A stretch of 64,000 nucleotides of DNA from Cytophagales bacterium (GTDB taxonomy: Bacteria > Bacteroidota > Bacteroidia > Cytophagales > Cytophagaceae). This document shows positions 2,231-43,266 of the stretch, one piece after another. A program made the translations under genes and the position numbers. The notes under the pieces were generated by a model that ran no database searches, had not been told where the DNA came from, and worked only from the letters and a program-made list of their open reading frames with translations. Every line of letters starts with the position of its first letter. The stretch's first letter is position 1. The stretch spans positions 8,860 through 72,859 of the forward strand of contig JAYTHK010000220.1 of the NCBI GenBank assembly GCA_043732665.1, read 5' to 3'.

Positions 2231-2255
2231 TAATCCAGCGTTTAAATAAGTATGT

Positions 2256-3746
<1,491 letters not shown>

Positions 3747-18045: not shown

Positions 18046-18078
18046 TTGAAACTATTGAAAATTTATACCAATCATTAT

Positions 18079-20109: not shown

Positions 20110-20167
20110 TAGGTAAGAAAAACAAGATATAAAACAGAACGAGTTATAAATTATAAAATCAATAAAA

Positions 20168-21934: not shown

Positions 21935-21958
21935 TTGAAAATTTTAATAACTAAAATT

Positions 21959-22996: not shown

Positions 22997-23001
22997 TAAA
23001 G

Positions 23002-23045
23002 AGCACAGTCATTTAATATAGAATGAAATATTAAATGACTGTGCT
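23002..23045 (+). terminator. Perfect 18-bp hairpin closing the GH16 locus
   Basis: AGCACAGTCATTTAATAT-agaatgaa-ATATTAAATGACTGTGCT, 6 nt after the stop of 21959..22996. Confidence 0.7.
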
Positions 23046-23149
23046 TACTTAAAAGGTAAATAGCCCTATCTTTAAATTCTTATTTTTGGTACAATTGTAT
23101 TGAAATTAAATGCTTAGTTGGTAAAAGTTTCCAGCGAGAGATTGAATTT

Positions 23150-24262
23150 ATGATAGAAAAAATAGCGTATCGATATCTTGCAAAACTTGCCGAATTACCA
23201 GGACAGAGCTCAGAATCACTTCATTTGCTGGTTGATCAGGAGGTAACCAAGATAAGAAAAGAGGTTATTATAACTCTTTTCTTTGCGGCGTTATTCGGTA
23301 CGATAGGCGTATTAGCACTCTATTTACCCCAATTTTATTTTCCAGAATACTTTTACGAATACAATGTTGTATTTCCTCTCTCTATTGAACCTGTTGGAAT
23401 TCCAGTGGTAAGTATAGTTTATGGCGTGATTTTGGTTTATATCGAGCTCTCTTTACTTATGGCGCTCAATATTCGTACTGTTTTTAAAATTGCTGAAGTA
23501 TGCGGTTTTCCTGACAAGAACGACCCAGATCATAAAAAGCACCTAGAGTCGCTTATGAGGGTAGGGTTAGAGAAAGACGACAAATCAGATGCTACTTATG
23601 GAATCGATCCTATGCAAGGAGCTTCTGAATGGACGCTGTTTATCTTTCTAATTATTGCAAGACTAAAAGCCACTATAAGTAATTATGTGATCAAAATGAT
23701 TTTGAGAAAAGTATTTGGTCGCTACGTACTTCGAATGGTTATTGATATTGCTGTAGGGGTTCCCATTTTTGCTTTTTGGAATGCTTATGCTTCTTATATT
23801 GTAATACAAGAAACGAAGGTTAGAATCATGGCGCCCACACTCATAAGACAGTTGTGTCGAAATTTGTTTGAGCGGTACCAACATACTCCTGAGTTTACAG
23901 AATACATCTACGATACATTGCAATATATTGCCATGTCCAAAAGGAAATACCATCATAATCATTTTTTACTGGCAAAAAATATCTTGTTGGCTTTTAATAT
24001 TCCAGTGAAAGAAATACACCTGTTAAACGAAGACTATTTTGAGAAAATAAAAATTGCCAAACCAGAAATAAAAGAGGGCGTGATTCAATTATTACTTATA
24101 GGATTTATTATTGATGGTAATTTGTCCTCACAAGAGAAACGTACGGTTGTTAAATTATACCAAGATAAAATCATTCCTTACGATCTCAGCAAGATAAAAG
24201 CATGGATTCATTCTTTTGTAGAAGGAAAAGGATTGGATAGGTTAGTCGATATGAAACGTTGA
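23150..24262 (+). CDS. Membrane protein of unknown function with a TerB-like C-terminal segment
   Basis: 370 aa with about 4 TM helices. The C-terminal segment LLLIGFIIDGNLSSQEKRTVVKLY resembles the TerB DGxxxxxE motif. It is monocistronic, between a terminator and a repeat-rich spacer. Confidence 0.5.
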   Translation: MIEKIAYRYLAKLAELPGQSSESLHLLVDQEVTKIRKEVIITLFFAALFGTIGVLALYLPQFYFPEYFYEYNVVFPLSIEPVGIPVVSIVYGVILVYIELSLLMALNIRTVFKIAEVCGFPDKNDPDHKKHLESLMRVGLEKDDKSDATYGIDPMQGASEWTLFIFLIIARLKATISNYVIKMILRKVFGRYVLRMVIDIAVGVPIFAFWNAYASYIVIQETKVRIMAPTLIRQLCRNLFERYQHTPEFTEYIYDTLQYIAMSKRKYHHNHFLLAKNILLAFNIPVKEIHLLNEDYFEKIKIAKPEIKEGVIQLLLIGFIIDGNLSSQEKRTVVKLYQDKIIPYDLSKIKAWIHSFVEGKGLDRLVDMKR

Positions 24263-29055: not shown

Positions 29056-29877
29056 ATGGAGGAAATAGGCATAGCAGAATTAAAAAAGTTGACGGAGCTG
29101 ATAAAGCAGAAATTTGGATATGATTTCAAAGATTATGCAATGTCTTCTTTTAAAAGACGGATAATTAGGGTTTTAGAGTTAAAAAAAATTTCTACAGTAG
29201 AGAGTCTTATTGTGCAAATAGAGAATAACGTTTTTGTAAAAGAAGACTTCCTTCACGAAATAACGGTAAATGTGACCGAACTCTTCAGAGACCCCTCTTT
29301 TTGGAGAGTTATAAAGTCAGTGCTTCCCAATTTATACCTAAATCAGGATAAAATAAAGATTTGGCACGCAGGCTGCTCTTCTGGTGAAGAAGTGTATTCT
29401 ATGCTAATCGTTCTGAAAGAAATGGATTTGATCGATAAAGTAGAGATCATCGCAAGTGATATTGACAAATGTATTTTGGCAAAAGCAAAAGAAGGTAAGA
29501 TTGCTTTAAGGAATATGGAGTTGAATGAGAAGAACTATATTCGTTACAATCCCAGTGGCGATTTAAAGAAATATTTTATCTATGACAAAGACTTTGCATA
29601 CTTCGACAAAGACTTATTGTCGAAGGTTTCTTTTAGAGAAATCAATTTAACAGAAGTAAAGGCATTTACGAAATGCGATCTTATTCTTTGTAGAAACGTA
29701 ATGATTTACTTTAATCAAAATTTACAAAACGAGGTTATTAAATTATACCACGAGATGTTATATACTTATGGCTATTTGGCCATTGGTTCTAAGGAGTCGA
29801 TTATATGGAGTGAATATGCAAATAAATTTTTGGTGGTGAACGGTGAGGAGAAAATTTATAAAAAATTCAAAGAATAA
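29056..29877 (+). CDS. cheR: CheR-type protein-glutamate O-methyltransferase
   Basis: It has an all-alpha CheR_N start (LTELIKQKFGYDFKDYAMSSFKRRI), TELFRDP, and the SAM site IWHAGCSSGEEVYS...ILCRNVMIYF. Confidence 0.9.
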   Translation: MEEIGIAELKKLTELIKQKFGYDFKDYAMSSFKRRIIRVLELKKISTVESLIVQIENNVFVKEDFLHEITVNVTELFRDPSFWRVIKSVLPNLYLNQDKIKIWHAGCSSGEEVYSMLIVLKEMDLIDKVEIIASDIDKCILAKAKEGKIALRNMELNEKNYIRYNPSGDLKKYFIYDKDFAYFDKDLLSKVSFREINLTEVKAFTKCDLILCRNVMIYFNQNLQNEVIKLYHEMLYTYGYLAIGSKESIIWSEYANKFLVVNGEEKIYKKFKE

Positions 29878-29931
29878 TCTTCTGATTATCAATAGTAACA
29901 ACAATGTATATCAGAGATAGAAATAGTCGTA

Positions 29932-30528
29932 ATGAGTGAGGCAGACTTAAATAGACGATACAAAGTAATTGTAATAGGAGGTTCTGCAGGTAGCTTTTCA
30001 GTATTGGCTAATATACTAAGTAAGATACCGAAAGATTTCACCATTCCGATCGTCCTCTGTTGTCACCGTTTAAAACATGTGAGGAGTGGTTTCATAGAGG
30101 CGTTAGAAATAAAAAGTGTAAAAAAAGTAGTAGAACCTGACGATAAGGAAGCTATTAGAAAAGGCAAAGTTTACGTGGCACCTGCAAACTATCATTTAGG
30201 ATTTGAAATTGGAAATAGCTTTGCACTTTCTACGGAGGAGATGGTAAACAATTCCAGACCTGCCATCGACATTACCTTTGAAACGGCAGCGTACGTGTAC
30301 AGAGAAAAAATGGTAGGTATCTTACTTACTGGTGCTAATAAAGATGGAGCACTTGGGATGAGATGTGTGAAGGAAGCAGGAGGACTTACCATAGTGCAGG
30401 AACCTTCGGAGTGCACCATTGATACAATGCCTAAGGCGGCGATGGCTGCTACAAAAATAGATTATGTGATGAAGGTAGAGGAGATTGTGAAATTTCTTAA
30501 TAATATACATAAAACACATTTATCTTAA
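29932..30528 (+). CDS. cheB: CheB-type protein-glutamate methylesterase, catalytic domain only (no receiver domain)
   Basis: 198 aa. It has VIVIGGSAGS (Ser), VLCCHRL (His), ILLTGANKDGALG (Asp) and IVQEPSEC. Confidence 0.88.
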   Translation: MSEADLNRRYKVIVIGGSAGSFSVLANILSKIPKDFTIPIVLCCHRLKHVRSGFIEALEIKSVKKVVEPDDKEAIRKGKVYVAPANYHLGFEIGNSFALSTEEMVNNSRPAIDITFETAAYVYREKMVGILLTGANKDGALGMRCVKEAGGLTIVQEPSECTIDTMPKAAMAATKIDYVMKVEEIVKFLNNIHKTHLS

Positions 30529-30529
30529 T

Positions 30530-31309
30530 ATGAAAAAAAGCATCATCACAATCGGGTTACTCTTAGTTTATTTAGTAACTTTTTTACTCCTGTTTATGAA
30601 ACTTAGAAGTATGTCTACAGTTGCACAGGAAGAACTTTCAGTAAAAAGTATTTATTATATTCTTGGTGCTATGTTTTTCGCAGGCATTGCAGCTTCCTTT
30701 TATTTGCTGACAACTTCAAGTAATAGCAAAAGCACAGTAGCACTTGAAAAGGAATCAGAAGTAGTTTCATTTGAAGAAAACAAAGACGTTTCTACAGAGA
30801 GTGAAATGGAAATTTCTAGAAGAGCAGAACAAGAAATAGAAATTATAAAAGTAGCGTTATCGTCGTTAGTTAATCAAAATGGTTTTTCTCATAAAGAAAA
30901 AATAGACAAAGCGATTTGGAAACTTTGCGATCATTTTGAAATAAGTCAAGCACTTTTATATACTAAGGGAGAAGAAAAAGGAAAGTTTAACTTAATCGCT
31001 TCTTATGCTTTTATTGCTTCTGACAATGATCCCAAATATATTATGTCTGGTGAAGGACTAGCTGGCCAGGCAGTGATAGACGGTAAGCCTTATTTTGTGA
31101 ACGATATTCCACAAGGATATTTGAAAGTCGTTTCTGGACTAGGAGAATCACTCCCAAAAACATTATTAATAATCCCATGCCTACAGGAAGCCAAGGTGCA
31201 AGCTGTATTTGAACTATCTAGTCTTCAAGAATATTCTAAAAATAAATTTGAAGAAATAGTTTTAATTTGTAATTATCTCTCAACTTTAATAACTAAATAT
31301 AAACCATGA
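30530..31309 (+). CDS. Two-TM membrane protein with a cytoplasmic GAF domain
   Basis: It has two N-terminal TM helices, an acidic linker and a GAF-like C-terminal half (QALLYTK...GLAGQAVIDGKPYFVNDI...LLIIPC..VQAVFELSS). It starts 1 nt after the cheB stop. Confidence 0.75.
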   Translation: MKKSIITIGLLLVYLVTFLLLFMKLRSMSTVAQEELSVKSIYYILGAMFFAGIAASFYLLTTSSNSKSTVALEKESEVVSFEENKDVSTESEMEISRRAEQEIEIIKVALSSLVNQNGFSHKEKIDKAIWKLCDHFEISQALLYTKGEEKGKFNLIASYAFIASDNDPKYIMSGEGLAGQAVIDGKPYFVNDIPQGYLKVVSGLGESLPKTLLIIPCLQEAKVQAVFELSSLQEYSKNKFEEIVLICNYLSTLITKYKP

Positions 31310-31830
31310 AAATCATTACTTACCAATTTTATTATAGATTATTTATGCTATTCATATTTATCCTGATCGGATTAAATTTGAATGCACAGGTAAATTATAA
31401 GGTGCACTCTTTGTTTATCTATAAATTCACACAATACATAGAATGGCCGTCGAATCAGGGAGATTTTGTAATAGGTGTGATAGGTAACTCCCCAATACAA
31501 GCAGAATTAGAAGCGATAGCTGCTATCAAAAAAGTAGATACGCGCACGATAGTGGTAAAAAAAATGTCTGCTTCGGCGGACTTAAGTACGTGTCAAATGG
31601 TATTTATTGCGGAAGGGCAAAGTGGCAATCTTGCTTCTATCTCTGCAAAGTTACAAGGTAAACATACACTTATAATAAGCGAGACAAATGGGGGCGCTAA
31701 GAAGGGAGCAGGAATAAATTTTGTGATCGTAGACGATAAAATGAAATTCGAACTCAATAAAGGAACAGTAGAAAAGCAGGGGTTAAAAGTGTCAGGAGAT
31801 CTGACAAAATTAGCAATAGTGGTTGGTTAG
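31306..31830 (+). CDS. YfiR-like periplasmic protein (DUF4154 family)
   Basis: It has a signal peptide ending LNAQ, the family block VHSLFIYKFTQYIEWP, and later VFIAEG...TLIISE..GAGINFV..DKMKFELN. Its ATGA overlaps the upstream gene. Confidence 0.75.
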   Translation: MKIITYQFYYRLFMLFIFILIGLNLNAQVNYKVHSLFIYKFTQYIEWPSNQGDFVIGVIGNSPIQAELEAIAAIKKVDTRTIVVKKMSASADLSTCQMVFIAEGQSGNLASISAKLQGKHTLIISETNGGAKKGAGINFVIVDDKMKFELNKGTVEKQGLKVSGDLTKLAIVVG

Positions 31831-31908
31831 AGGAGTATTCTAATGTTTAACAATTTTACCCAATAATAAATAAGTTTATTTACTAATTAACCCTTTAAAG
31901 TTTAAAAC

Positions 31909-34134
31909 ATGAAGAAAAACATACTAAAATTAATCCTTGGAATAGGAACGTTTTTACTGGTCTCAATCGGAACTGCTTCTGCACAAACAGACAGTTTATC
32001 GGATGATATCAGTTTAGAAGATCTGATGAACGTAAAGATCGTTTCTGTTTCTAAAAAAGCAGAAAATTTATTTGATGCACCTTTGTCTGCGTCAAGCATA
32101 AGCCGCGAAGAAATCAAAAGAGCAGGGGCTAATTCTATCATGGAAGCCTTGAGATTAGTTCCAGGTGTAATGGTAACAGAAAGTACCAATGGAAACTATC
32201 AGGTTAGTTTGAGAGGTTTTGGAAACCTTCCTCCTGGAACTTCTTTAAATTTTGCGACGAACTCCATTACACTTGTAATGATTGACAATAGACCCGTTTA
32301 CAATTATTTCAACGGAGGAACTTTCTGGGAAACACTTCCAGTAGATTTGAACGACGTTGAAAAAATAGAAGTGGTGAGAGGTCCTGCTGCTGCGGTTTAC
32401 GGGCCAAATGCTGCTGCCGGTGTGATTAACATCATCACAAGAAGACCTGATAAAAATGGTTTGTATACCGTTGCGAATGCTCAAATCGGAACGCCAAATC
32501 AGGTTATTACAAATGCTTCTGTGGGCTATAAATTTGACAAATTTGATTTTATCGTTTCTGGAAACCAACAATACAGAACTAGGACAGAGACCGATTACTA
32601 CTCATGGGTAGACGGTAAAAAAGAAAACGTAGACAGTATTAAAACAAGTTTTCCAGCAGCGTTAATGTCGGATACATCACTTAATCCTAATGCTAATAAA
32701 AGGTATCCGCACAAAAGTACTTCTATGAATAAGTATGGCTACAATGCTTTCCTTAATTATAAAGTCTCTCAAAAATCGCTTATAAGTATGGCTTTTGGAG
32801 GAGAAAGTGCTATGGTACAAAAAGCGTTTATTGAAAATTTGGCTTCTCCTTTATCTACCTCTCAGTCTGATTCTAAATATTTAGACATAAAAGGAAAGTT
32901 TAATCACTTTTCTATTCAAGGTTCTTATTTAGGAGGCACTCAAGACGAAGGAGTAGGTCAAATAGGCTATAAGTATAACTTCAATACAGTCGATGCAAAT
33001 GCTGATTATGAATTTATATATAAGAGCTTGTCCATAAAACCCGGGGTTTCCTATAGAAAAGCTACTTACGATGATTCTAAATATGCGCATATCGATACGC
33101 ATCAAGGATTTCTTGGTGGAAAAAAAGCACTAGAAAATTATTCAGGGTCTTTAAGGTCGGAATTAACAGTCGTTAAAATAGTAAAATTAACAGCTGCGGG
33201 AAGACTCGATGGATACAATCATCCTAATAAAGCATACTTGTCTTATCAATTAGGAGCTACTGCTAAATTGAACGAAAAAAATCTTGTTAGATTCGTTGTT
33301 TCCAGAGCATACAAAGGGCCTAATATGTACGATACTTATGCTTCTAATAACATATATGTTGGTACAGCACAAGCAGGTCCATTCACGCCTCCTTTATATG
33401 CGCAGGCTTTGGGAAGTCAAAATCTTAAAATGCAAAGTGTAGATATGCTTGAAGTGGGGTATAGAGTGAAGGCGACTAGTAACTTGTATTTTGACTTGGA
33501 AGTCTTTAATCAAATTTCTCAAAATTTTACTTATTTGGTCAACCAGCCTTACAAAATCGAGGCTAATGGATTTGGTATTCCTACTAAAGTTACCGTAGTT
33601 CAGAAATCAGACAATATAGATATGAAAGCCATTCAAACAGGAGCAACACTTTCTGCTAACTGGGTAATTGGTAAATTTCAGATCAAACCTTTTATAACGT
33701 TCCAACAAACGAATTTGAAAAAGGTACCTGTATACAGAGATGCGGATAGTGTTAGTGCTACTCAAAATGTTCATGTAACGACAGATAAAAAAGATGCGGC
33801 TACTCCTAATTACTATGGTGGTGCATACATCAACTATGCTGCAACTTCAAGATTGAATATTAACGTGACGGGATATTATTATAGTAATTATACATATTCT
33901 AATATATATAATCTGCTGTACAATACTCCTACTAACCCAACTCCAAATCCTGATGCAGGTATAGCTAAAGTAAACGGTAAAGTACTTATCAATGCTAAAG
34001 TTTCTTATAAATTCTTTAACAAATTGGATCTGTTTATAGCGGCTAAAAATATCATGAACAATACAGGTTATGAATTTGCGCATACTGATAAAATTCTACC
34101 AACCTTCTTGGTAGGTGGTAATTTCGAATTCTAA
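31909..34134 (+). CDS. TonB-dependent outer-membrane receptor
   Basis: It has a signal peptide and a plug region (LEDLMNVKIVSVSKKAENLFDAPLSASSISREEIKRAGANSIMEALRLVPGV, IEVVRGPAAAVYGPNAAAGVINIITR). A long beta-barrel ends in GGNFEF. Confidence 0.92.
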   Translation: MKKNILKLILGIGTFLLVSIGTASAQTDSLSDDISLEDLMNVKIVSVSKKAENLFDAPLSASSISREEIKRAGANSIMEALRLVPGVMVTESTNGNYQVSLRGFGNLPPGTSLNFATNSITLVMIDNRPVYNYFNGGTFWETLPVDLNDVEKIEVVRGPAAAVYGPNAAAGVINIITRRPDKNGLYTVANAQIGTPNQVITNASVGYKFDKFDFIVSGNQQYRTRTETDYYSWVDGKKENVDSIKTSFPAALMSDTSLNPNANKRYPHKSTSMNKYGYNAFLNYKVSQKSLISMAFGGESAMVQKAFIENLASPLSTSQSDSKYLDIKGKFNHFSIQGSYLGGTQDEGVGQIGYKYNFNTVDANADYEFIYKSLSIKPGVSYRKATYDDSKYAHIDTHQGFLGGKKALENYSGSLRSELTVVKIVKLTAAGRLDGYNHPNKAYLSYQLGATAKLNEKNLVRFVVSRAYKGPNMYDTYASNNIYVGTAQAGPFTPPLYAQALGSQNLKMQSVDMLEVGYRVKATSNLYFDLEVFNQISQNFTYLVNQPYKIEANGFGIPTKVTVVQKSDNIDMKAIQTGATLSANWVIGKFQIKPFITFQQTNLKKVPVYRDADSVSATQNVHVTTDKKDAATPNYYGGAYINYAATSRLNINVTGYYYSNYTYSNIYNLLYNTPTNPTPNPDAGIAKVNGKVLINAKVSYKFFNKLDLFIAAKNIMNNTGYEFAHTDKILPTFLVGGNFEF

Positions 34135-34150
34135 GATCAATACTAATACA

Positions 34151-34180
34151 AGTACCGAACCTTCCAGCAGGTTCGGTACT
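34151..34180 (+). terminator. Strong 11-bp hairpin between the TonB receptor and the sensor-phosphatase gene. Terminator, attenuator or processing site.
   Basis: AGTACCGAACC-ttccagca-GGTTCGGTACT followed by TTAAAATAAAAAA. There is no clean U-run. It lies 17 nt after the stop and 19 nt before the next ATG. Confidence 0.45.
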
Positions 34181-34198
34181 TTAAAATAAAAAATACCT

Positions 34199-37100
34199 AT
34201 GAAACTGAGATTTGGAATAAGGCAAAAAGTGTATTTAGGATTTTCTATCCTTATCGTATTATTTGTGGCAAATGCCGTTGTAAGTCTTATCACACTTGAG
34301 AAGAATAGAAAACTTATTGCAGAGGTTTCAGAAGTAGTAGACCCTTCGCTCGAATCGCTTGATCAGCTAACGCTAATGGTCAATAAATCAAAGATGCTTT
34401 CTACCAACTGGGTTTTCATGAAGACCAACGAAGAAGATAAAAAAGCACTTAAAAAATTGATGGATAAAGAATATCCTGCCTTAAAGGCGAATATTATAAC
34501 CTTAAAGAAAAGATGGAGAGATGCAGTAGTTTCTAAAGAGATGGATGCTGTACTAAAAGATTTTGACAACCTTATTAAAGCTGAAAAAGAAGTGGTTGAG
34601 CTTCTTCCTAATTTTGAATCCTATGAAGATGGTAGTACTCTTTTTCTCGCACAAGATGGCATAGAATCGCAGGTATTGACGATGTCTGCCGAACTAATGA
34701 AAAGACTTGGGGCTGTTTCTTCAAAAAAGAAACAAGAAAAAGTGGAGTATGAAAAAGACCTTATAGCTTCTTCCGACAATCTTCAATTCAGTGTATTGAT
34801 ATTGGGAGCACTAGTTGTATTTATTGGAATATTTGCTTCCATTTTTATGGCAAATACAATCACGGAGCCGGTAAATAAAATACGTGATATAATGATAAAA
34901 TTGGGCGCTGGAGAGCTTCCTAAAATTGAATTTGAAAAATCAAAAGACGAAATGGGGGAGATGCAAAATGCGATCAGCAATGTGATAGCAGGTCTTGCCC
35001 AAACCACCGAATTTGCAAATAAAATAGGTCAGAAAGAATTAGACGCAGAGTACAAACCACTTAGTAATAAAGACGTTTTAGGGTTATCTCTTATACACAT
35101 GAGAGACAGTCTGAAAGAATCAGACAAAACGGAACGAGAAAGGTCTTGGGTGATGGACGCTTCTTCTGAAGTAAATGATATTCTCCGGAAACACGACAAT
35201 ATCGACTTGCTGAGCGAAGAAGTATTGCAGTATATTATAAAAAGAATAGACGCCATACAAGGCGCTTTTTATGTGGTGACAGAAAGAGATACTACGGATT
35301 ATAGAAATACATTTCTGGAAATGAAATCCAGTTTTGCTTACAATAGAAAAAAATATTTGACTGCTAAGTTTAGAATGGCAGAAGGATTGGTAGGACAAGC
35401 AGCGATTGAACAAAGTACTTTATTAAGAACAGAAATTCCAAGAGAGTACGTTTCGATCACTTCGGGACTTTTGGGAGACAAACGCCCAACGTGCATTCTT
35501 ATCGTGCCACTCGCTATAGACGATGTCGTATACGGTGCAGTGGAGTTTGCAGGGTTTCATAAATTTGAAGAACACGAAATTCGATTTGTCGAAGAAGTTG
35601 GTCCTAGTATTGCCAGAACGATTTATAATATTCAGTCCAATCAGGAAACAAAATTGTTGCTCGAAAAATCTCAGATTATGGGACAAGAGCTTCAGGAGAA
35701 ACAGGAAGAGCTTTTGCAGAATGCAGAAGAAATGAAAGTGACTCAGGAAGAATTGGAGAAATCTAATGTTTTACTCGAAGAACAAATAGGCGAAGTAAGT
35801 CTGGCACAAGATCGGATGGAGCAATTGCTCTACAATGCTTCGGAAGTAATTACCATATACGAGGCCGATGGCACAATACGTTATATAAGTCCTTCGGTAA
35901 AAAATATACTTGGATACGATCCTGAAGAGCTTATAGGACTTAAAGGTAGAACGTTCGTACACGAAGAAGATATTCATAAATCCAGAAATATGTTTAAGGG
36001 TATTTTGGAAAATTCTGAAGCCTCTCAAACTATACAATACCGTTTCCAAAAGAAAAACAATCAGTGGATATGGCTGGAAGCTACAGGGAAAAATTTACTT
36101 AGCGATGCTTCGGTAAAAGGAATTGTAATCAATGCGCGCGACATTACGGTGAAGATGAAAGCAGAGCAAGAAGAGCGCATGAGAAGGAATATGCAAGCGC
36201 TTTCTGAAAACAGCCCCGACCTTATTACACGTATTAGTGTAGAAGGAAAGATTGCGTACACAAATCCCACTATTGAATTGTATACTACTTCTAAAGCCGA
36301 AGATTTTACAGGTAAAATGTTGGGAGATATTACGATAGGTGCAGAAGTTGTAAAATCGTGGAAGTTATTGCTGGAAGAGGTAAAACTGAAGAATGAAAAC
36401 ATCTCAGAGGAAGTTACTTACAAAACGCCAACGGGAGACCGCATTATGCAGGTTAATGCTATTCCAGAGTACAACGATAATGTGTTGGAGTCTGTTTTGA
36501 TGGTAGCACATGATATTACAGAACGAAAAGAAGCAGAATTGCTTATTCAGGATAAAAATAAGAAGATTAACGAGAGTATCAATTATTCTAAACGTATTCA
36601 GAATGCCGTAATTCCCGATAATAAAGCGATTACCAACATATTCAAAGATTCCTTTATTTTCTACCATCCAAAAGATGTGGTAAGCGGAGACTTTCCTTGG
36701 ATGATGGAAAAAGGCGACGAAATTTATGTAGCCGCTGTCGATTGTACAGGCCATGGTGTACCGGGTGCAATGCTTTCTTTGGTAGGAAATTTTTTACTAA
36801 ACGATATTATTCGCAATGGTAATTCTTTGAGTCCAGCTGTCATTTTGGATAAATTTGATGAGATGGTAAATACTACCTTAGCGACGGAAAAGAACGATTC
36901 GCAGATAAAAGACGGAATGGATATCGCTCTTTGTAAAATAAACATTAAAACCCGAAAACTGGAATATGCAGGAGCACATAGGCCGCTTTATCATATCAGC
37001 AAAGGGGAATTACATGAATATAAAGGCGATAAATGGGCGATAGGTGGAGGTGTTTATAAGAACCAGACAAAATTTACTAACTACGAAGTGAATCTAAAAA

Positions 37101-37315
37101 AGGACGACGCCGTATACATCTTCTCTGACGGGTTGCCTGATCAGTTTGGTGGACCAAATGTTAGGAAATTTGGACCGCAACGCATAAAAGAAGTGGTAAT
37201 GAGTCAAAATCAGAATATGGAACTTACCTATAATGCGATGAAAACAGAGTTTCACAACTGGATGGGAGCCCAAAAACAAACCGACGATGTTTTGTTGATC
37301 GGAATAAAATTCTAA
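34199..37315 (+). CDS. MCP-like four-helix-bundle sensor, TM, HAMP, GAF, coiled coil, 2-3 PAS domains and a PP2C/SpoIIE phosphatase (SiaA-like)
   Basis: It has an MCP-type N-terminus MKLRFGIRQKVYLGFSILIVLF, a second TM helix near residue 200 and a HAMP region (ITEPVNKIRDIMIKLGAGELP). The GAF region contains GAFYVV..GLVGQAA. PAS blocks include EVITIYEADGTIRYISPS and LITRISVEGKIAYTNP. PP2C motifs are VSGDFPW, AAVDCTGHGVPGA, IFSDGLPDQFGG and QTDDVLLIGIKF. Confidence 0.88.
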   Translation: MKLRFGIRQKVYLGFSILIVLFVANAVVSLITLEKNRKLIAEVSEVVDPSLESLDQLTLMVNKSKMLSTNWVFMKTNEEDKKALKKLMDKEYPALKANIITLKKRWRDAVVSKEMDAVLKDFDNLIKAEKEVVELLPNFESYEDGSTLFLAQDGIESQVLTMSAELMKRLGAVSSKKKQEKVEYEKDLIASSDNLQFSVLILGALVVFIGIFASIFMANTITEPVNKIRDIMIKLGAGELPKIEFEKSKDEMGEMQNAISNVIAGLAQTTEFANKIGQKELDAEYKPLSNKDVLGLSLIHMRDSLKESDKTERERSWVMDASSEVNDILRKHDNIDLLSEEVLQYIIKRIDAIQGAFYVVTERDTTDYRNTFLEMKSSFAYNRKKYLTAKFRMAEGLVGQAAIEQSTLLRTEIPREYVSITSGLLGDKRPTCILIVPLAIDDVVYGAVEFAGFHKFEEHEIRFVEEVGPSIARTIYNIQSNQETKLLLEKSQIMGQELQEKQEELLQNAEEMKVTQEELEKSNVLLEEQIGEVSLAQDRMEQLLYNASEVITIYEADGTIRYISPSVKNILGYDPEELIGLKGRTFVHEEDIHKSRNMFKGILENSEASQTIQYRFQKKNNQWIWLEATGKNLLSDASVKGIVINARDITVKMKAEQEERMRRNMQALSENSPDLITRISVEGKIAYTNPTIELYTTSKAEDFTGKMLGDITIGAEVVKSWKLLLEEVKLKNENISEEVTYKTPTGDRIMQVNAIPEYNDNVLESVLMVAHDITERKEAELLIQDKNKKINESINYSKRIQNAVIPDNKAITNIFKDSFIFYHPKDVVSGDFPWMMEKGDEIYVAAVDCTGHGVPGAMLSLVGNFLLNDIIRNGNSLSPAVILDKFDEMVNTTLATEKNDSQIKDGMDIALCKINIKTRKLEYAGAHRPLYHISKGELHEYKGDKWAIGGGVYKNQTKFTNYEVNLKKDDAVYIFSDGLPDQFGGPNVRKFGPQRIKEVVMSQNQNMELTYNAMKTEFHNWMGAQKQTDDVLLIGIKF

Positions 37316-37342
37316 ATTTAGAAATAAATTAATAAAACGTAA

Positions 37343-37921
37343 ATGGCCTTAGTTACATATTTATTTAAACAGAAACCTATGAAGTATATCTATGAGATTC
37401 AGAAAATAATGTCATCCAAGAACCTGATGTTAGTTTATGAAGGTGAATTCACGCAGGAAATCACAAAATCGGTATTGTCGATGACAGAAAGAAACCTTGA
37501 ATCTATTGGTGAAGAGTCCGGTATAAAAAGAAAAGTGTTTAATGTGATGGTAGAATGTTTGCAAAATATATGCAAACACGCGGATACTTTTGAAGCCAAT
37601 CAAGAAGAGAAAGGCGCAGTATTTATGATAGGAAGAGAAGAAGGTAGTTATGCTATTACTTCTGGAAATTTTATTCTGAATACTCAAACGGAAGGCTTGA
37701 GAGCAAAATTGTTACATATTAATTCGCTTGATAAAGAAGGATTAAAAGGCTTCTACAAAGAACTTATAAAAAGCAGTGAGATTTCAGACAAAGGAGGAGC
37801 TGGTCTTGGGTTTGTAGATATAGCTAGGAAGTCTGGACAGAAACTAGATTTTGATTTTGAAAAAGTGAACGACGAGTATTCCTTTTTCTCATTTAAAACA
37901 AAAATCAGTAAAGAAGAGTAA
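37343..37921 (+). CDS. SiaB-like small protein kinase (anti-sigma/RsbW-type GHKL fold)
   Basis: 192 aa. It has LMLVYEGEFTQEIT, VMVECLQNICKHAD and the ATP-lid-like GGAGLGFVDIARKSG. It lies immediately upstream of a DUF1987 gene. Met-13 (37379) is an alternative start. Confidence 0.7.
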   Translation: MALVTYLFKQKPMKYIYEIQKIMSSKNLMLVYEGEFTQEITKSVLSMTERNLESIGEESGIKRKVFNVMVECLQNICKHADTFEANQEEKGAVFMIGREEGSYAITSGNFILNTQTEGLRAKLLHINSLDKEGLKGFYKELIKSSEISDKGGAGLGFVDIARKSGQKLDFDFEKVNDEYSFFSFKTKISKEE

Positions 37922-37940
37922 CTTTTAAAATAATATTATT

Positions 37941-38303
37941 ATGCAAATTATACAATTAGAAGGTACAGAGGATACACCAAAAGTACTATTGGATAAAGCG
38001 AATGGAATCTTAGAAATTTCTGGAAGATCGCTTCCTGAGGATGCAGCAGAGTTTTATCAGCCTATTTTAAATTGGCTTGCCGACTATGCAGGTCAAGCAA
38101 ACCCATCAACTGAACTCGTAATAAAATTAGAATATTTTAATACAGCCTCTTCTAAATTAATTTTGGATGTACTTTCGAAATTGGAGGAAGTGAAAGGCTC
38201 TAGAGTTACGTGGTATTATTATGAAGACGATGAAGATATGCAGGAAGCGGGTGTTGAGTTTTCAGAACTAGTAGATGTGCCGTTTGAATACAAAACATAT
38301 TAA
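37941..38303 (+). CDS. SiaC-like DUF1987 regulatory phosphoprotein
   Basis: 120 aa. It has TEDTPKVLLDKANGILEISGRSLPEDAAEFYQPILNWL, the motif YFNTASSK with Thr at position 68, and an acidic C-terminal YYYEDDEDM. Confidence 0.75.
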   Translation: MQIIQLEGTEDTPKVLLDKANGILEISGRSLPEDAAEFYQPILNWLADYAGQANPSTELVIKLEYFNTASSKLILDVLSKLEEVKGSRVTWYYYEDDEDMQEAGVEFSELVDVPFEYKTY

Positions 38304-38331
38304 AATATATTGATTTTTTTGATACAACTAA

Positions 38332-41300
38332 ATGAGTGAGGAGATACTAAAGTCGCTTGCGCAGTTATACGCAATTATTACAAAGCAGGATGGTGGGGTT
38401 ACAGAGAGCGAAAAAGCCTTTGTGGTTAATTCATTCAAGAAAAAGCTGAACCTTGCTACTGCGGAGCAATATATTAACCTCTACGAAGAATTCATAAAAG
38501 AAGGAGAGGGTAAGGACGATGGTAAAAAAAGACTTACTTCTGTAAAAGACTCCGTAAAAACGCTCGGTATTTGTCGCAAGATAAATAAAACGCTTACCCA
38601 GAAACAAAAGATAGTAGTACTGGTAGAGCTTCTGGAGATTTTAAAATCAGAAAAAAGCAAAGATGCTGCTCAGCAACAAGAGATTGTAGATACTGTAGCC
38701 ATTGCTTTTAATATTGAAAAAGAGGAGTATAAAACCATTCAGACTTTTGTACTCCACGACGATATACAGCTTTTTGGAGACGAAAATATTCTTGTGATCA
38801 ACAACAGGGATTCTTCCACCATTCCCGGTAATTCAAAACATATTCACTCCGATCTTACAGAAGGAAATATATTTTTTGTAAGAGTGAAAAGTGTGGACAT
38901 GATTTTTCTGAAATATACAGGAGACGATGAAATTACGCTGAACAGTTTAATAATAGGAGAAGACGATGTAACGCTTTTTTCGCAAGGCAGTACTGCTAAA
39001 TCAAAACTTGGTGGTGTATTTTATTATAGCGATGTATTGTCGCACTTTATCAGTGAGTCCGCTTCCGTAAAATTATCTTTTCAAGTAAGCAATCTTGAAT
39101 TTAGATTTCCCAATCATAAAATAGGCCTGAGAGATGTAAATATATCCGAAGAATCGGGGAAACTCATAGGTATAATGGGGGGCAGTGGCGCGGGTAAAAC
39201 TACTTTACTTAACGTATTGGCAGGGCTCGAAAAGCCATACAAAGGAGATGTATTGATAAATGGATTTAACCTCCATAAAGAAAAATATAAGGTAAGAGGT
39301 GTTATCGGTTATATTCCACAGGATGACTTATTGATCGAAGAGCTTACTGTTTTTGAAAATTTATTTTACAGCACGAAGCTTTGTTTTAAAAATAAAACAG
39401 ACGAAGAAATAACAGTACTTGTAAAGAAAGTATTAGATAATTTGGGCCTCGCACAAAGCAAAGACTTGCGTGTAGGAAACGCGTTGAATAAGTCTATTAG
39501 CGGTGGGCAACGCAAGCGGTTAAACATAGCGCTTGAATTGATTCGTGAGCCGTCGGTTCTTTTTGTAGACGAACCAACCTCAGGACTTTCTTCCAGAGAC
39601 TCTGAAAACGTAATGGATTTACTCAAAGAGCTTACGTTGAGAGGAACACTTATTTTTGTAGTGATTCACCAGCCTTCGTCCGATATCTACAAGATGTTTG
39701 ACAAGATGTTTATGTTGGATGTGGGAGGTTTTCCAATCTACTACGGCAATCCGGTGGAAGCAATCACCTACTTTAAGAAAGTTTCTCAACAAGCAGACAG
39801 CGACAAAGGTCAGTGCAATACCTGTGGAAATGTAAACCCAGAGCAGATCTTTAACATCATAGAAGAAAAGGTAGTAGACGAATACGGTAACTTTACAGGA
39901 AGTAGAAGATTTACGCCCAAGCAATGGAACGATTCTTTCGTTAGTAAGTTTGAACTGAAAAGAGTAGAAGATATCAAAACGAATACTATTGGTGTTTTGC
40001 AAATTCCAAATACGATAAAACAGTTCTGGGTATTTACGGTAAGAGATTTTAAATCCAAGCTTTTCAATAAGCAGTATATGCTTATCAATCTTATCGAAGC
40101 TCCTTTGTTGGCCTTTATATTGTCCTTTATCTTGCGTTACAACAATAACACCAGTGGAACTGGATATGTGTTTAGGTACAATGAAAATATTCCTGCATAT
40201 ATATTAATGAGTATTGTAATTGCAATTTTCATTGGTTTAAGTATAAGCGCAGAGGAAATTATAAAAGACAAAAAAATACTTAAAAGAGAAACGTTTCTAA
40301 ATCTTAGTAGGAATAGTTATTTACTGTCGAAAGTATTTATTCTTTTTATGTTTTCAGCAATCCAAACCTTAACTTTTGTATTAGTAGGAAATGCTATTTT
40401 GGAGATAAAGGGTATGTACCTCGAATATTGGGTGATACTGTTTTCTGTAGCCTGTTTTGCAAACCTGACCGGACTTATTATTTCCTCAGCCTTCGATACA
40501 GCGATTACCGTTTATATACTAGTGCCGCTTTTACTGATTCCTCAAATGATCTTGAGCGGTTCTATTTTTAGTTATGATAAAATAAATGACGTTATCAGAA
40601 GCAAAGATAAAGTGCCAGCGGTAGCCGACTTGATGGTGTCTCGCTGGGCGTACGAAGCCATAGCAGTAAAATCGTATAGGGATAATGGGTATGAAAAATT
40701 CTTTTACAAAGTAGAACAGAAAGAAAATGTTGCCAATTTTAACATTATCTATTTGCTTCCTGAGTTGAGCGAGCGTTTGGACTTTACGTATCAAAATCTA
40801 AATTCAAAAAGCGATTCAATTCTTAGATTGAGTAGTTATAATCTGGCAATAGTAAATGCGGAGTTGCTCAAGAAAAGTAATTACTCAGCACAAGGATTTC
40901 CTAAGAAAGAATTTGAATTTATTTCTATCGATAAATTAACGAATACTTCTTACGAGCAGTACAAAAAATATATAGAGGAGTTGTCTGACTACTATACTAA
41001 AATATTTAACGAATCCAGTAAGGAGAAAGATAATTATCTTTTCGCGCTGAGTAGACTTAATGGTGGTACAGACGTAAATAAATTGAAGGATAATTACTTC
41101 AATGAAAGTTTGTCTGACTTGGTGAGAAACGCCACTGCTAAGAAAAGAATAATAGATGCAAAAGGTTATTTAGCTCCCAAAACGGATTACATTTATTTCC
41201 GTCCTGTAGCAACGCAAGGCGCTTTTGATTATAGAGCTCACTTCTTTTCACCAGAGAAACATTTTGCTGGAAAGTATTACGATACATTTAAGTTTAATAT

Positions 41301-41406
41301 ATTTGTAATCTGGTTGGCTGGACTTTTCTTATACCTTGTATTGTATTTTGACTTATTAAGAAAGCTTCTGAATGTTTTTGGAAGGGTCACCATCCTGAAA
41401 ACGTAA
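38332..41406 (+). CDS. Fused TerB-like domain, beta-rich (weakly FHA-like) domain, ABC ATPase and ABC-2 (G-type) permease, with a ~220-aa C-terminal extension and a terminal TM helix
   Basis: The TerB-like N-terminus is LAQLYAIITKQDGGVTESEKAFV. It has Walker A GIMGGSGAGKTT, signature ISGGQRKRLNIALEL and Walker B LFVDEPTSGLS. The ABC-2 TM block covers roughly residues 575-780, and the last TM helix is FVIWLAGLFLYLVLYF. Confidence 0.85.
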   Translation: MSEEILKSLAQLYAIITKQDGGVTESEKAFVVNSFKKKLNLATAEQYINLYEEFIKEGEGKDDGKKRLTSVKDSVKTLGICRKINKTLTQKQKIVVLVELLEILKSEKSKDAAQQQEIVDTVAIAFNIEKEEYKTIQTFVLHDDIQLFGDENILVINNRDSSTIPGNSKHIHSDLTEGNIFFVRVKSVDMIFLKYTGDDEITLNSLIIGEDDVTLFSQGSTAKSKLGGVFYYSDVLSHFISESASVKLSFQVSNLEFRFPNHKIGLRDVNISEESGKLIGIMGGSGAGKTTLLNVLAGLEKPYKGDVLINGFNLHKEKYKVRGVIGYIPQDDLLIEELTVFENLFYSTKLCFKNKTDEEITVLVKKVLDNLGLAQSKDLRVGNALNKSISGGQRKRLNIALELIREPSVLFVDEPTSGLSSRDSENVMDLLKELTLRGTLIFVVIHQPSSDIYKMFDKMFMLDVGGFPIYYGNPVEAITYFKKVSQQADSDKGQCNTCGNVNPEQIFNIIEEKVVDEYGNFTGSRRFTPKQWNDSFVSKFELKRVEDIKTNTIGVLQIPNTIKQFWVFTVRDFKSKLFNKQYMLINLIEAPLLAFILSFILRYNNNTSGTGYVFRYNENIPAYILMSIVIAIFIGLSISAEEIIKDKKILKRETFLNLSRNSYLLSKVFILFMFSAIQTLTFVLVGNAILEIKGMYLEYWVILFSVACFANLTGLIISSAFDTAITVYILVPLLLIPQMILSGSIFSYDKINDVIRSKDKVPAVADLMVSRWAYEAIAVKSYRDNGYEKFFYKVEQKENVANFNIIYLLPELSERLDFTYQNLNSKSDSILRLSSYNLAIVNAELLKKSNYSAQGFPKKEFEFISIDKLTNTSYEQYKKYIEELSDYYTKIFNESSKEKDNYLFALSRLNGGTDVNKLKDNYFNESLSDLVRNATAKKRIIDAKGYLAPKTDYIYFRPVATQGAFDYRAHFFSPEKHFAGKYYDTFKFNIFVIWLAGLFLYLVLYFDLLRKLLNVFGRVTILKT

Positions 41407-41463
41407 CATTTATTTTAATTTTAACGTAAACAACAATCTGTAACTTATATTACTAAGCTATTT

Positions 41464-42387
41464 ATGAAAAAGTTATTTTTGTACTCCGTTGTAATTTCTG
41501 CTTCCATGCTGTTTTTTGCATGCGGCTCTTCCACAACCAACAATCAGACGTCGGATGAGGCGAAACTGCAACAAATGATAGATTCGGCAAATGCTGCTCC
41601 TCAAGACAATAAATTGCCAGAAGAGGCTGTAGGAGAAATTCTTAAACAAATTCCATCACCTATTGAGACTTCAGTACTTATTAAAAAAACAGGAGGTTCT
41701 TATACAAAAGATATTTTAAATCCTTCTGAAAATGCGCAAGGCTACAGTTCAAACTATAAAAAAGCTTTAAACTTAGGCGTGTATGGAGCCGATTTAGGTT
41801 ATATTAATATTTACGAAAAAAATAAAGAAAGCTTGTACTACCTCAACTCAATCAAATCGATGGCAGATGGGCTTAATATAGGTCAGTTTTTCGATTTTGA
41901 AACGATAAAAAGATTGGCGAATAATAATAAGAATGCAGATTCTTTATTAAACATCACAACCGACAACTTTAATAAAATTAACACCTTTTTATACGAGCAA
42001 AAAAGATCGGATCAAAGTGTATTGATCCTTACTGGAGGCTGGTTAGAAGGGTTGAACATCATGTGTCAGATAGCATCGAAAAATAAAAATCCTAAATTAT
42101 ACGAAAGAATAGGAGAGCAGAAGATAATTATAGATCAATTAGTACTTGTTTTGTCTAATTATGAGGCAGATAATAACATTAAACTTTTAAATAATGATCT
42201 AAAGCAATTACAAGAAGTTTACAAAAAAGTGCAAATAACGTACACTTACAAAGAGTCAAAAATGGAAGTAGTGGACGGAATCCCTACAATAGTGGACAAA
42301 AGCGAGAGCAAAGTGAACATTACTGATTCTCAAGTTATTGAAGTTGCCAAGCTGGCCAATTCAATAAGAAATAAAATTGTGAGTTAA
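41464..42387 (+). CDS. Lipoprotein of unknown function (mostly alpha-helical)
   Basis: It has the lipobox MLFFACGSS. I recognised no family. Same strand, 57 nt after the ABC gene. Confidence 0.6.
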   Translation: MKKLFLYSVVISASMLFFACGSSTTNNQTSDEAKLQQMIDSANAAPQDNKLPEEAVGEILKQIPSPIETSVLIKKTGGSYTKDILNPSENAQGYSSNYKKALNLGVYGADLGYINIYEKNKESLYYLNSIKSMADGLNIGQFFDFETIKRLANNNKNADSLLNITTDNFNKINTFLYEQKRSDQSVLILTGGWLEGLNIMCQIASKNKNPKLYERIGEQKIIIDQLVLVLSNYEADNNIKLLNNDLKQLQEVYKKVQITYTYKESKMEVVDGIPTIVDKSESKVNITDSQVIEVAKLANSIRNKIVS

Positions 42388-42427
42388 TATTTTTAATTGT
42401 ACATTTGCTAAGATAGCTCGATTATTT

Positions 42428-42829
42428 ATGAAAAAAGTACTAATACTTACAGTAGCAGCTCTGTTTATTTGTGGAGTTTCTATGTCGCAGTTCAAGACTC
42501 CTGAATGCGTAGCAAAATTAAATGGTTTTACTTTTCTAAAAACATATAAACTAGACAATCCTGCAAAAGAGGTTGAATATTCGTATGTGTTTAGTAAGGA
42601 TAACAGTTATATGTTAATTATCTGCAACAAAGACGGCGCTCAGAAAAATGCAAGCGTTACACTTTATGATTCTAACAGAAATATGATTGCGAGTAGTTAT
42701 GACGAAGCAAATAAACGTCAATATTACGCTCTAGCATACAACTGCAGATCTACCGGAATTTATTATATGAAATTCAAGTTTGATGATCCATCCACGGAGT
42801 GTTCAAGTGTGTTGGCATTTAGAAGGTAA
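42428..42829 (+). CDS. Small secreted Cys-containing beta-rich protein of unknown function
   Basis: It has the signal peptide MKKVLILTVAALFICGVSMSQ and four further Cys residues. It is the last gene before terminator 42853-42887. Confidence 0.55.
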   Translation: MKKVLILTVAALFICGVSMSQFKTPECVAKLNGFTFLKTYKLDNPAKEVEYSYVFSKDNSYMLIICNKDGAQKNASVTLYDSNRNMIASSYDEANKRQYYALAYNCRSTGIYYMKFKFDDPSTECSSVLAFRR

Positions 42830-42852
42830 TTAATAATCGAAGAAAATTAGTT

Positions 42853-42887
42853 GGCAGGCCTTTTTATAAATAGCCTGCCTTTTTTTA
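42853..42887 (+). terminator. Intrinsic terminator closing the signalling/ABC gene string
   Basis: GGCAGGC-(13 nt)-GCCTGCC followed by TTTTTTTT. Confidence 0.75.
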
Positions 42888-42891
42888 TACC

Positions 42892-43266
42892 ATGCAAAAC
42901 GATCCAGAACTAAGCGGAAAATACCTCGGCTCTATCACAAAAGATTTTGTGAAAATAGCTGACAATTTGAAAGAAGCCTCTTATCAAATGAGAGTGAGAG
43001 ATATTTCTAAATACCCAATTTTCACTATATCCAAAGTAGAGCTTCCTATAGGACAATTGTTTTTAGGAATAAAAGATACGGCCGCAGGTATAGAGTGGAA
43101 TTACAATGTTTCGTTTCTCGATGAGTTTATGCAACGCGGTTTGGTGGCAGAAGACAAAATAGAAGATTTTGAAGCAGCGTATAAAAACCCAGATGAGTTT
43201 TGTTGCTTATTTGTGGTAGATGTAGGTTTTACAAATTTCGTCTTTATTCCGTATCCAGAAGATTAG
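42892..43266 (+). CDS. Conserved-looking cytoplasmic hypothetical protein
   Basis: 124-aa ORF with no signal peptide and balanced composition, directly upstream of coaD. I recognised no family. Confidence 0.5.
   Translation: MQNDPELSGKYLGSITKDFVKIADNLKEASYQMRVRDISKYPIFTISKVELPIGQLFLGIKDTAAGIEWNYNVSFLDEFMQRGLVAEDKIEDFEAAYKNPDEFCCLFVVDVGFTNFVFIPYPED

Follow-up and report, generated by a model that had tools for sequence, protein, structure and literature searches.

A SiaABC-type threonine phospho-switch with an ABCG-type exporter in the siaD position in a Cytophagales bacterium

Introduction

The question raised by the locus described here is what a SiaABC-type switch controls in a 64,000-nucleotide (nt) stretch of DNA from a Cytophagales bacterium (assembly GCA_043732665.1, contig JAYTHK010000220.1; the whole stretch is here named the window). 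Homologues of the SiaA phosphatase, the SiaB kinase and the SiaC phosphoprotein are found within a cluster of eleven genes, which also encodes CheR and CheB, a YfiR-like protein, a TonB-dependent receptor and an ATP-binding cassette (ABC) transporter. To our knowledge, work on SiaABC has until now been confined to Pseudomonas, where it regulates a cyclic di-GMP (c-di-GMP) cyclase. An earlier reading of this sequence (the original prediction) had proposed that the output of the switch has been rewired to the adjacent transporter. On balance, our analysis favours a SiaABC-type threonine phospho partner switch with the adjacent ABCG-type exporter, and not a diguanylate cyclase, as its output.

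Results and Discussion

Switch components

The eleven open reading frames (ORFs) are all on the plus strand, and the ORF listing reproduced their coordinates and spacers as originally predicted (54 nt, 1 nt, an ATGA overlap, then 78, 64, 27, 19, 28, 57 and 40 nt; Table 1). The domain calls made at that time were borne out for all eleven ORFs by hidden Markov model (HMM) and PDB searches, with TerB and HAMP below their gathering scores (see below), and the HMM check supported the SiaB, DUF1987/SiaC and DUF4154 assignments in particular. All parts of the switch are encoded intact, the phospho-acceptor included, and the siaD position is taken by an ABCG-like exporter that has a dedicated cytoplasmic head and is accompanied by conserved periplasmic partners.

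Table 1. Features of the cluster and its borders, in window coordinates.
Feature	Position	Strand	Basis and remarks
TPR/PD40/OmpA envelope protein, 764 aa	26286..28580	-	Pfam; divergent from cheR
CheR-type glutamate O-methyltransferase, 273 aa	29056..29877	+	Pfam CheR 5.1e-39 and CheR_N
CheB methylesterase, 198 aa	29932..30528	+	CheB_methylest 2.6e-50, residues 13-188; without receiver domain
Small membrane TM-GAF protein	30530..31309	+	GAF_2 1.8e-07; transmembrane (TM) helices 5-23 and 44-62
YfiR-like (DUF4154) periplasmic protein	31306..31830	+	Pfam 7.5e-37
TonB-dependent outer-membrane receptor	31909..34134	+	Plug 5.8e-25 and barrel 3e-10
Hairpin between TonB receptor and SiaA-like genes	34150-34181	+	13-bp stem, weak U tract only; -20.1 kcal/mol, z -8.0
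SiaA-like sensor phosphatase, 1038 aa	34199..37315	+	TM, periplasmic helical sensor, TM, HAMP, GAF, coiled coil, two PAS, SpoIIE/PP2C
EE-heptad coiled coil in SiaA-like protein, aa 502-523	35702..35767	+	QEELLQN-A-EEMKVTQ-EELEKSN; candidate CheR/CheB methylation site
SiaB-family Ser/Thr kinase, 192 aa	37343..37921	+	Pfam DUF6272 5.4e-43; NF038262 SiaB_fam_kinase
SiaC-family phosphoprotein, 120 aa	37941..38303	+	Pfam SiaC PF09345 (DUF1987) 1.5e-37
ABCG-type half transporter, 1024 aa	38332..41406	+	ABC_tran and ABC2_membrane (Pfam)
Conserved lipoprotein (lipo307), 307 aa	41464..42387	+	Invariant Cys20 lipobox
Small secreted Cys-containing protein (sec133), 133 aa	42428..42829	+	Signal-peptide-like helix 4-22; sub-threshold Pfam match only
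Intrinsic terminator after sec133	42853-42886	+	7-bp GC-rich stem 42853-42879, then T7; -13.9 kcal/mol, z -2.5

The SiaB-like protein scored 171 bits against a cutoff of 85 with the NCBIfam SiaB_fam_kinase model NF038262, and matched the P. aeruginosa SiaB structure (6kko_A) at 1e-15. The SiaC-like protein matched P. aeruginosa SiaC (6kko_C/6k4f) at 1e-13 with Thr68 aligned. The Thr68 codon is at 38142-38144, where the YFNTAS stretch of the window aligns to the P. aeruginosa peptide LLYLNTSSIK, in which Thr68 is the experimentally mapped phospho-site (PMC7647112). This threonine was invariant in all of the 81 SiaC-like sequences compared.

The SiaA-like protein has a 165-aa periplasmic region (helical sensor at nt 34292-34792) and a C-terminal PP2C domain (nt 36716-37312; SpoIIE 9.1e-18 in Pfam), over which the NCBIfam SiaA model gave a local match of 1.1e-54. 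The PP2C motifs DCTGHG, DGMD, SDGL and TDDV are all present, with the metal-binding motifs intact, and HAMP was detected slightly below its gathering score (22.8 bits, Pfam). The four-helix-bundle (4HB) label originally given to the sensor had no direct Pfam hit in the window protein, but was recovered through a homologue with 4HB_MCP_1 in locus L033 (see below). The homologues share a HAMP/GAF-coiled coil-PAS-PAS-PP2C architecture with variable sensors, namely dCache_1 in many Cytophagales, no membrane-bound sensor in others, and a helical periplasmic one in the window's clade. The score of the SiaA-like protein with the NCBIfam SiaA model was 186 bits against an equivalog cutoff of 700, and the SiaA, SiaB and SiaC equivalog scores were all below their cut-offs, indicating that the window proteins are family members and not orthologues.

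Variants of these components were also seen. Some lineages have two tandem SiaB paralogues (L048:8848-9988, L058:533-1644 and L079:7938-9495), L079 carries an extra SiaC paralogue, and L075 encodes a 291-aa SiaB-SiaC fusion protein. The window itself encodes another PP2C (SpoIIE) protein, 724 aa long, at 122-2296 (-), whose N-terminal 528 aa had no Pfam match.

Conservation of the core and search for c-di-GMP enzymes

The window was compared by tblastn and blastp with 80 SiaC-centred loci from species-representative genomes, 69 of which had enough downstream sequence to be scored for the gene after SiaC. The SiaC-like protein of the window is 70-94% identical to proteins of many Cytophagales, which indicates a Cytophagaceae-like source. 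The homologues proved to be syntenic, with the TerB-ABC gene directly after SiaB-SiaC and on the same strand in 49 of the 69 loci, mostly with gaps of 19-110 nt between SiaC and the transporter gene. These ABC-linked loci belong to Cytophagaceae, Cyclobacteriaceae, Bernardetiaceae, Flammeovirgaceae, Roseivirgaceae, Fulvivirga, Sporocytophaga, Marinilabiliaceae (Bacteroidales) and unclassified Bacteroidota known from metagenome-assembled genomes (MAGs), and the SiaC of all 49 is at least 54% identical to that of the window.

Downstream genes were counted in 43 ABC-linked loci, where the lipoprotein (40/43) and the small secreted protein (36/43) usually follow the transporter. Upstream genes were counted in 39, all of which contain SiaB, together with cheR (34/39), the long SiaA-like phosphatase (32/39) and cheB (31/39); the YfiR-like gene (5/39) and the TonB receptor (4/39) were rare. 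By sequence comparison, the conserved core is SiaB-SiaC-(TerB/FHA-like)ABCG-lipoprotein-small secreted protein, and CheR, CheB, TM-GAF and the multidomain PP2C are usually located upstream of it. The eleven genes had been described as a single cluster; the core is indeed widely kept, but the rarity of the YfiR-like gene and the receptor indicates that the whole is not one uniformly conserved unit. In four loci (L026, L034, L036 and L038) the core genes alone are kept.

The SiaC proteins of the remaining 20 loci, which lack the ABC neighbour, are the most distant of all (50-55% identity), and these loci come mostly from Flavobacteriales and Catalimonadaceae. Their SiaB-SiaC pairs adjoin other PP2C sensors (Reg_prop-Y_Y_Y-SpoIIE) or unrelated genes.

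The original prediction had noted no GGDEF, EAL or HD-GYP motif in the cluster or the window, and a six-frame regular-expression search of the 64 kb and a Pfam search of essentially all its ORFs of at least 90 aa agreed in finding none. Among the 2,139 ORFs of the 80 loci no GGDEF motif was found, the only near-match being a false hit to "GSEEF" in a CheW, and no GGDEF protein stands beside SiaC in any of these loci.

The transporter and its cytoplasmic head

Human ABCG2 aligns to residues 255-747 of the transporter, covering the nucleotide-binding domain (NBD) and the transmembrane domain (TMD). Hydropathy showed five TM helices, a loop of ~245 residues (nt 40555-41298) and a sixth TM helix at residues 990-1008; from the ABCG topology, the loop is predicted to be periplasmic.

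The N-terminus contains a TerB-like helical domain (nt 38332-38754) and an FHA-like beta domain (nt 38779-39027). The TerB match was weak in the window protein (18.1 bits; Pfam gathering score 24.4), and a precomputed PF05099 match exists for most homologues. Residues 1-262 were modelled with AlphaFold2 from 41 homologues; the model had a predicted local distance difference test (pLDDT) score of 87 and a predicted template modelling (pTM) score of 0.83, and shows a seven-helix TerB-like bundle (3-141) packed against a nine-strand beta domain (153-231). When the beta domain was compared with the PDB using Foldseek, FHA domains made up 47 of the top 50 matches, with probabilities of 0.9-1.0. A sequence profile of the domain had a single PDB match at E <=10, which was the FHA domain of MEK1 (E 0.027). 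The family has invariant residues of its own, namely S187, F192, Y195, G197, N204-G205, G219-S220 and YYSD. On the strength of the model, residues 150-232 of the transporter appear to be a non-canonical FHA-like domain, a newly recognised feature, and it is possible that this domain reads phosphothreonine (pThr). A PilZ-type c-di-GMP reader was also considered for the beta domain and rejected, since FHA domains dominated the fold matches and none of them was PilZ.

The accessory lipoprotein belongs to a family of 4,782 homologues, none of which has a Pfam domain; its AlphaFold2 model (pLDDT 81) is a helical bundle with a small sheet.

The exporter as the output of the switch

In the mechanism that we propose, the SiaB-like kinase and the PP2C phosphatase would set the phosphorylation state of Thr68 in the SiaC-like protein. 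One phospho-state of SiaC would then bind the transporter at its TerB/FHA-like head, thereby gating ATP-driven export, a step suggested by gene context and motifs. The cargo would belong to the envelope and would probably be hydrophobic, for example a lipid, and the 245-aa loop, the lipoprotein and the secreted protein would act on the periplasmic side. We favour the exporter as output because the ABC gene follows SiaC in most loci, core-only loci exist, GGDEF proteins are missing from the loci compared, the head was modelled with confidence, and Rv1747 of Mycobacterium tuberculosis offers a precedent. The rewiring envisaged in the original prediction is supported by the synteny and by the siaD position of the ABC gene, while the link between switch and transporter is still drawn from gene context and motifs.

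Several observations weigh against this interpretation. The ~20 SiaB-SiaC pairs without an ABC neighbour indicate that SiaC-family proteins have other targets too, and no SiaC-ABC gene fusion was seen. The FHA matches of the head had Foldseek E-values of only 0.008-0.5, Pfam FHA did not match any of 30 isolated beta-domain sequences, and the canonical FHA pThr residues (the GR-loop Arg, SxxH and the SxNG Asn) are not conserved in the 41 homologues, the Asn position being mostly Glu. The lipoprotein model had nothing better than E 0.7 in a Foldseek search of the PDB, so it gives no clue to the exporter substrate.

The same features of the head bear on the polarity of the switch. An FHA-like fold beside a Thr-phospho switch could mean that it is pThr68-SiaC that is bound by the transporter, in which case the kinase, and not the phosphatase, would switch export on, opposite to P. 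aeruginosa, in which SiaD is bound by unphosphorylated SiaC only. Rv1747 uses FHA-pThr interactions (PMC3138270). The invariant basic residues K/R194 and K/R223, with the mostly conserved Arg184, could form a phosphate site. We nevertheless regard this polarity as unlikely, given the loss of the canonical pThr residues. Many FHA-like folds, such as that of EssC, which was among the fold matches, are regarded as phospho-independent.

The pairs without an ABC gene or any obvious common neighbour, found in Flavobacteriales, Catalimonadaceae and others, also suggest a further explanation, in which the transporter is not the output at all. SiaC might regulate an unlinked target, with the ABC transporter and lipoprotein simply co-expressed, or the transporter might act upstream, sensing flux or stress and signalling this to the kinase; the search for GGDEF proteins and other partners covered the window and the 80 loci only. 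This seems improbable, since the tight adjacency holds across family and order divergence, even where the phosphatase is encoded elsewhere, the ABC gene takes the siaD position, and the transporter carries a dedicated, conserved cytoplasmic regulatory head. The exporter is retained as the favoured output in what follows.

CheR, CheB and a candidate methyl-acceptor motif

No signalling domain of a methyl-accepting chemotaxis protein (MCP), no CheA and no CheW was found by the Pfam search, which covered nearly every ORF of the window with 90 aa or more. A candidate substrate for CheR and CheB was found in the phosphatase itself. The segment linking its GAF and PAS domains, ELQxxQExLRQNAEEMxATQEELxRSN, is near-invariant in more than 40 SiaA-like homologues and holds two EE[LM]xx[ST][NQ] heptads. 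Their spacing of acidic pairs and small residues presumably resembles that of MCP methylation helices (Tsr/Tar consensus).

Across the 80 loci, a regular expression for the tandem heptads matched 31 SiaA-like proteins, 0/8 Reg_prop-type PP2Cs and 1 of ~850 other ORFs with a length of 150 aa or more. This single other ORF (L031:17629-20358, minus strand, incomplete at the locus edge) encodes a CheR-heptads-PAS-HisKA-HATPase fusion, in which CheR is followed by six EE[LIF]xx[ST]N heptads (EELQAAN EEIVSTN EEFQTLN EELETSK EEIEATN EELISSN). A search of CheR homologues for fusion partners returned, among the best 150, nearly all stand-alone or simple CheR-CheB proteins without heptads.

A second kind of link was found in L055:2-10378 (Bacteroidota MAG contig JAZKHE010000006.1), where a whole Che operon, in the order PASx4-HAMP-MCP, CheW, CheY, REC-CheB, CheA, CheC-like and CheR, leads straight into genes for a PP2C of 322 aa, a pair of SiaB paralogues and SiaC, after which the contig stops. 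Like the FHA-like domain, the heptad motif and the L055 arrangement are newly recognised features. From the specificity of the heptads, the CheR-fused kinase, the L055 operon and the company of cheR/cheB in most ABC-linked loci, we infer that CheR and CheB act on the coiled coil of the SiaA-like phosphatase. CheR would add methyl groups to this EE-heptad segment, located between GAF and PAS, and the receiver-less CheB would remove them, providing an MCP-independent adaptation layer.

Taken together with the exporter, this would amount to a "short-circuited" chemosensory pathway, in which CheR and CheB tune the PP2C directly, without MCP, CheA or CheW, and SiaC gates the ABCG exporter via the degenerate FHA/TerB head. 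We offer this combined scheme tentatively, as a possibility and not as a probable outcome.

A lineage-specific input module

Input would enter through the phosphatase. In the window, the YfiR-like protein and the TonB receptor would control its periplasmic sensor, by analogy with the action of YfiR on YfiN, and further signals would arrive in the cytoplasm through GAF, PAS and the TM-GAF partner. The YfiR-like protein came closest to the NCBIfam model TOL_0243 YfiR-like, with 121.5 bits (cutoff 125); with the YfiR equivalog it reached 39.6 bits (cutoff 85).

The YfiR-like gene is found in the cluster only among the closest relatives and in L033. In L033 the phosphatase has no membrane sensor, and a stand-alone 531-aa 4HB_MCP-HAMP-GAF protein is encoded between the YfiR-like gene and the TonB receptor; residues 3-499 of the window SiaA-like protein align end to end with it (40% identity, E 9e-126). 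In all seven of the distant metagenomic loci examined, the YfiR-like gene is flanked by that of a TonB receptor on one side and that of a CHASE8-HAMP-HisKA-HATPase(-REC) kinase on the other. The stand-alone sensor of L033 and these seven trios indicate that receptor, YfiR-like protein and periplasmic sensor form a portable input module, which, as judged from sequence, thus appears to have been fused and inserted upstream of the PP2C in the window's clade. The YfiR-like/TonB pair is a lineage-specific module that travels with the periplasmic sensor of the phosphatase. The original idea of an outer-membrane and periplasmic input fits such a portable trio, but applies to this lineage only.

The TonB-dependent receptor (TBDR)/YfiR-like/CHASE8-HAMP kinase trios came from soil metagenome contigs (L086-L096), and their kinases are often hybrid. 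In L096 a GGDEF-EAL protein is also encoded, 4 kb upstream.

One system or two

Both hairpins of the original prediction are real, but the one at 34150-34181 is a stronger structure than the "first clean terminator" after sec133, although it has no proper U tract; none of 200 shuffled sequences folded equally well. The strength of this hairpin makes it possible that the cluster consists of two transcription units. A sigma-70 promoter scan gave background levels (51 found against 54.7 expected), a search for the Bacteroidota -7 box had its sole intergenic match before sec133, and an Rfam scan of the cluster matched no RNA family.

The hairpin parts the cheR-to-TBDR half from the SiaA-to-sec133 half, and in this respect it counts against a single integrated system. 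The co-occurrence of the heptads with the methylation enzymes is also imperfect: 25 loci have both the motif and cheR/cheB, 5 the motif only, 9 cheR/cheB only and 9 neither, a moderate association (Fisher p = 0.02, phylogeny ignored). Heptads are kept without nearby cheR/cheB in L033 and L037, Marinilabiliaceae keep cheR/cheB with degenerate heptads, and methylation of a non-MCP substrate was not documented in the literature searched.

These observations could be explained by two independent systems, with cheR-cheB-TMGAF-YfiR-TBDR as a separate envelope-sensing unit and SiaA-to-sec133 working without methylation. CheR and CheB would then have another substrate, for instance the TM-GAF protein or an unlinked heptad-bearing kinase, and heptad-bearing CheR-fused kinases do occur in the same genomes. 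Taken jointly, these proposals are doubtful. In most loci the gene immediately before the SiaA-like one is the positional homologue of TM-GAF, and cheR-cheB-TMGAF keeps this place in most loci without YfiR/TBDR; the dividing hairpin lacks a proper U tract, and the Che operon of L055 runs directly into PP2C-SiaB-SiaC.

Neighbouring genes and other window observations

The divergent TPR/PD40/OmpA protein has a 70%-identical homologue in the same position in L081, and weaker homologues are found beside the SiaB-SiaC-ABC cluster in L040-42, L048, L057 and L066. It may be part of the system, which is uncertain. On the other side, a 124-aa ORF without Pfam match (42892-43266, plus strand) starts 5 nt past the terminator, and its place beside the cluster is shared solely by the closest relatives (L001-L006 and L039).

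Elsewhere in the window, an 892-aa ORF (56867-59545, plus strand) with two D-Ala-D-Ala ligase (Ddl) N-domains and several C-domain stretches is apparently a tandem-fused double Ddl, and is followed by a gene for a PASTA-domain protein (59659-60414, plus strand). A 7TMR-DISM_7TM and GAF protein (13451-15025, minus strand) overlaps by 4 nt a 556-aa ORF without Pfam match (11784-13454, minus strand), and the two may be a split or two-part sensor. The region 17158-24262 (plus strand) encodes a GH16 glycoside hydrolase, then four ORFs (676, 588, 345 and 370 aa) without Pfam match at E <=1e-5.

Comparison with known systems

The closest known system is SiaABCD of P. aeruginosa (PMC7647112, PMC8457831), which shares with the window the PP2C, the SiaB-family kinase, the DUF1987/SiaC protein, the gene order and Thr68, as well as the expectation that the switch protein binds the product of the next gene. 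The fourth gene is the GGDEF cyclase SiaD in that system and an ABCG-type exporter in the window, where the phosphatase is also far larger and the genes for CheR/CheB, TM-GAF, the YfiR-like protein and the TonB receptor are added. The authors of the SiaC-SiaD structure proposed, as a speculation, that modulating adjacent proteins is a general role of the DUF1987 family (PMC8457831). Other partner switches with non-sigma outputs, HptB-HsbR-HsbA-HsbD and BgrSTUWV-BgrR (cited in PMC8457831), likewise use a kinase/phosphatase pair to toggle a small STAS-like protein that directly binds and regulates an enzyme; their outputs, however, are diguanylate cyclases.

For the exporter, the nearest parallel is Rv1747/PknF, an FHA-bearing ABC exporter controlled by Ser/Thr phosphorylation (PMC3138270). 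Both have an NBD-TMD exporter with N-terminal cytoplasmic FHA-type domain(s), FHA-like by predicted fold in the window protein, encoded beside a Ser/Thr phospho-signalling enzyme. Rv1747 has two canonical pThr-binding FHA domains and is served by a Hanks-type kinase, whereas the window combines one degenerate FHA-like domain fused to TerB with a HATPase-type SiaB kinase and a separate phosphoprotein, and adds a large predicted periplasmic loop and the lipoprotein and secreted partners.

YfiBNR (TpbB) resembles the input side, with a DUF4154/YfiR-like gene beside a membrane enzyme that has a periplasmic helical sensor and HAMP, and with an outer-membrane component. The transmitter there is the cyclase YfiN and here a PP2C phosphatase, and the OmpA-like lipoprotein YfiB contrasts with a TonB-dependent receptor; the only OmpA-domain protein near the cluster is the 764-aa TPR/PD40 protein on the opposite strand. 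The closest model of the window protein is also TOL_0243 YfiR-like and not YfiR, and its relatives pair with CHASE8 histidine kinases. Non-motility Che pathways and CheR-fused kinases share with the window CheR and CheB beside a signalling protein, and EE-heptads that resemble methyl-accepting helices, but the window has no MCP, CheA or CheW, its CheB has no receiver, and the presumed methyl acceptor is in a PP2C phosphatase.

The components come from known families (SiaA/B/C, CheR/CheB, DUF4154, TBDR, ABCG, TerB and FHA-like), and the defining outputs of SiaABCD (the cyclase), YfiBNR (YfiN and YfiB) and Che (MCP, CheA and CheW) are absent from the window. As the original prediction had anticipated, our literature searches found no described system of this composition, nor any partner switch acting on an ABC transporter.

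Implications

This cluster, conserved and widespread in Bacteroidota, suggests that the SiaABC phospho-switch is a general-purpose module, here apparently connected to export at the envelope. The accessory lipoprotein of the exporter belongs to a family of thousands, none of them annotated. The TonB receptor/YfiR-like/periplasmic-sensor trio appears to be a portable input device with interchangeable transmitters. The candidate methyl-acceptor motif on the phosphatase and on CheR-fused kinases gives a testable answer to an old puzzle, the retention of CheR/CheB by non-flagellated Bacteroidota without chemoreceptors. Two testable new ideas follow, the transporter as output of the switch and the phosphatase as substrate of CheR/CheB. 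If the short-circuited pathway were true, the methylation enzymes of chemotaxis would gain a new substrate class, and among partner switches this would be the first known case with a transporter under its control.

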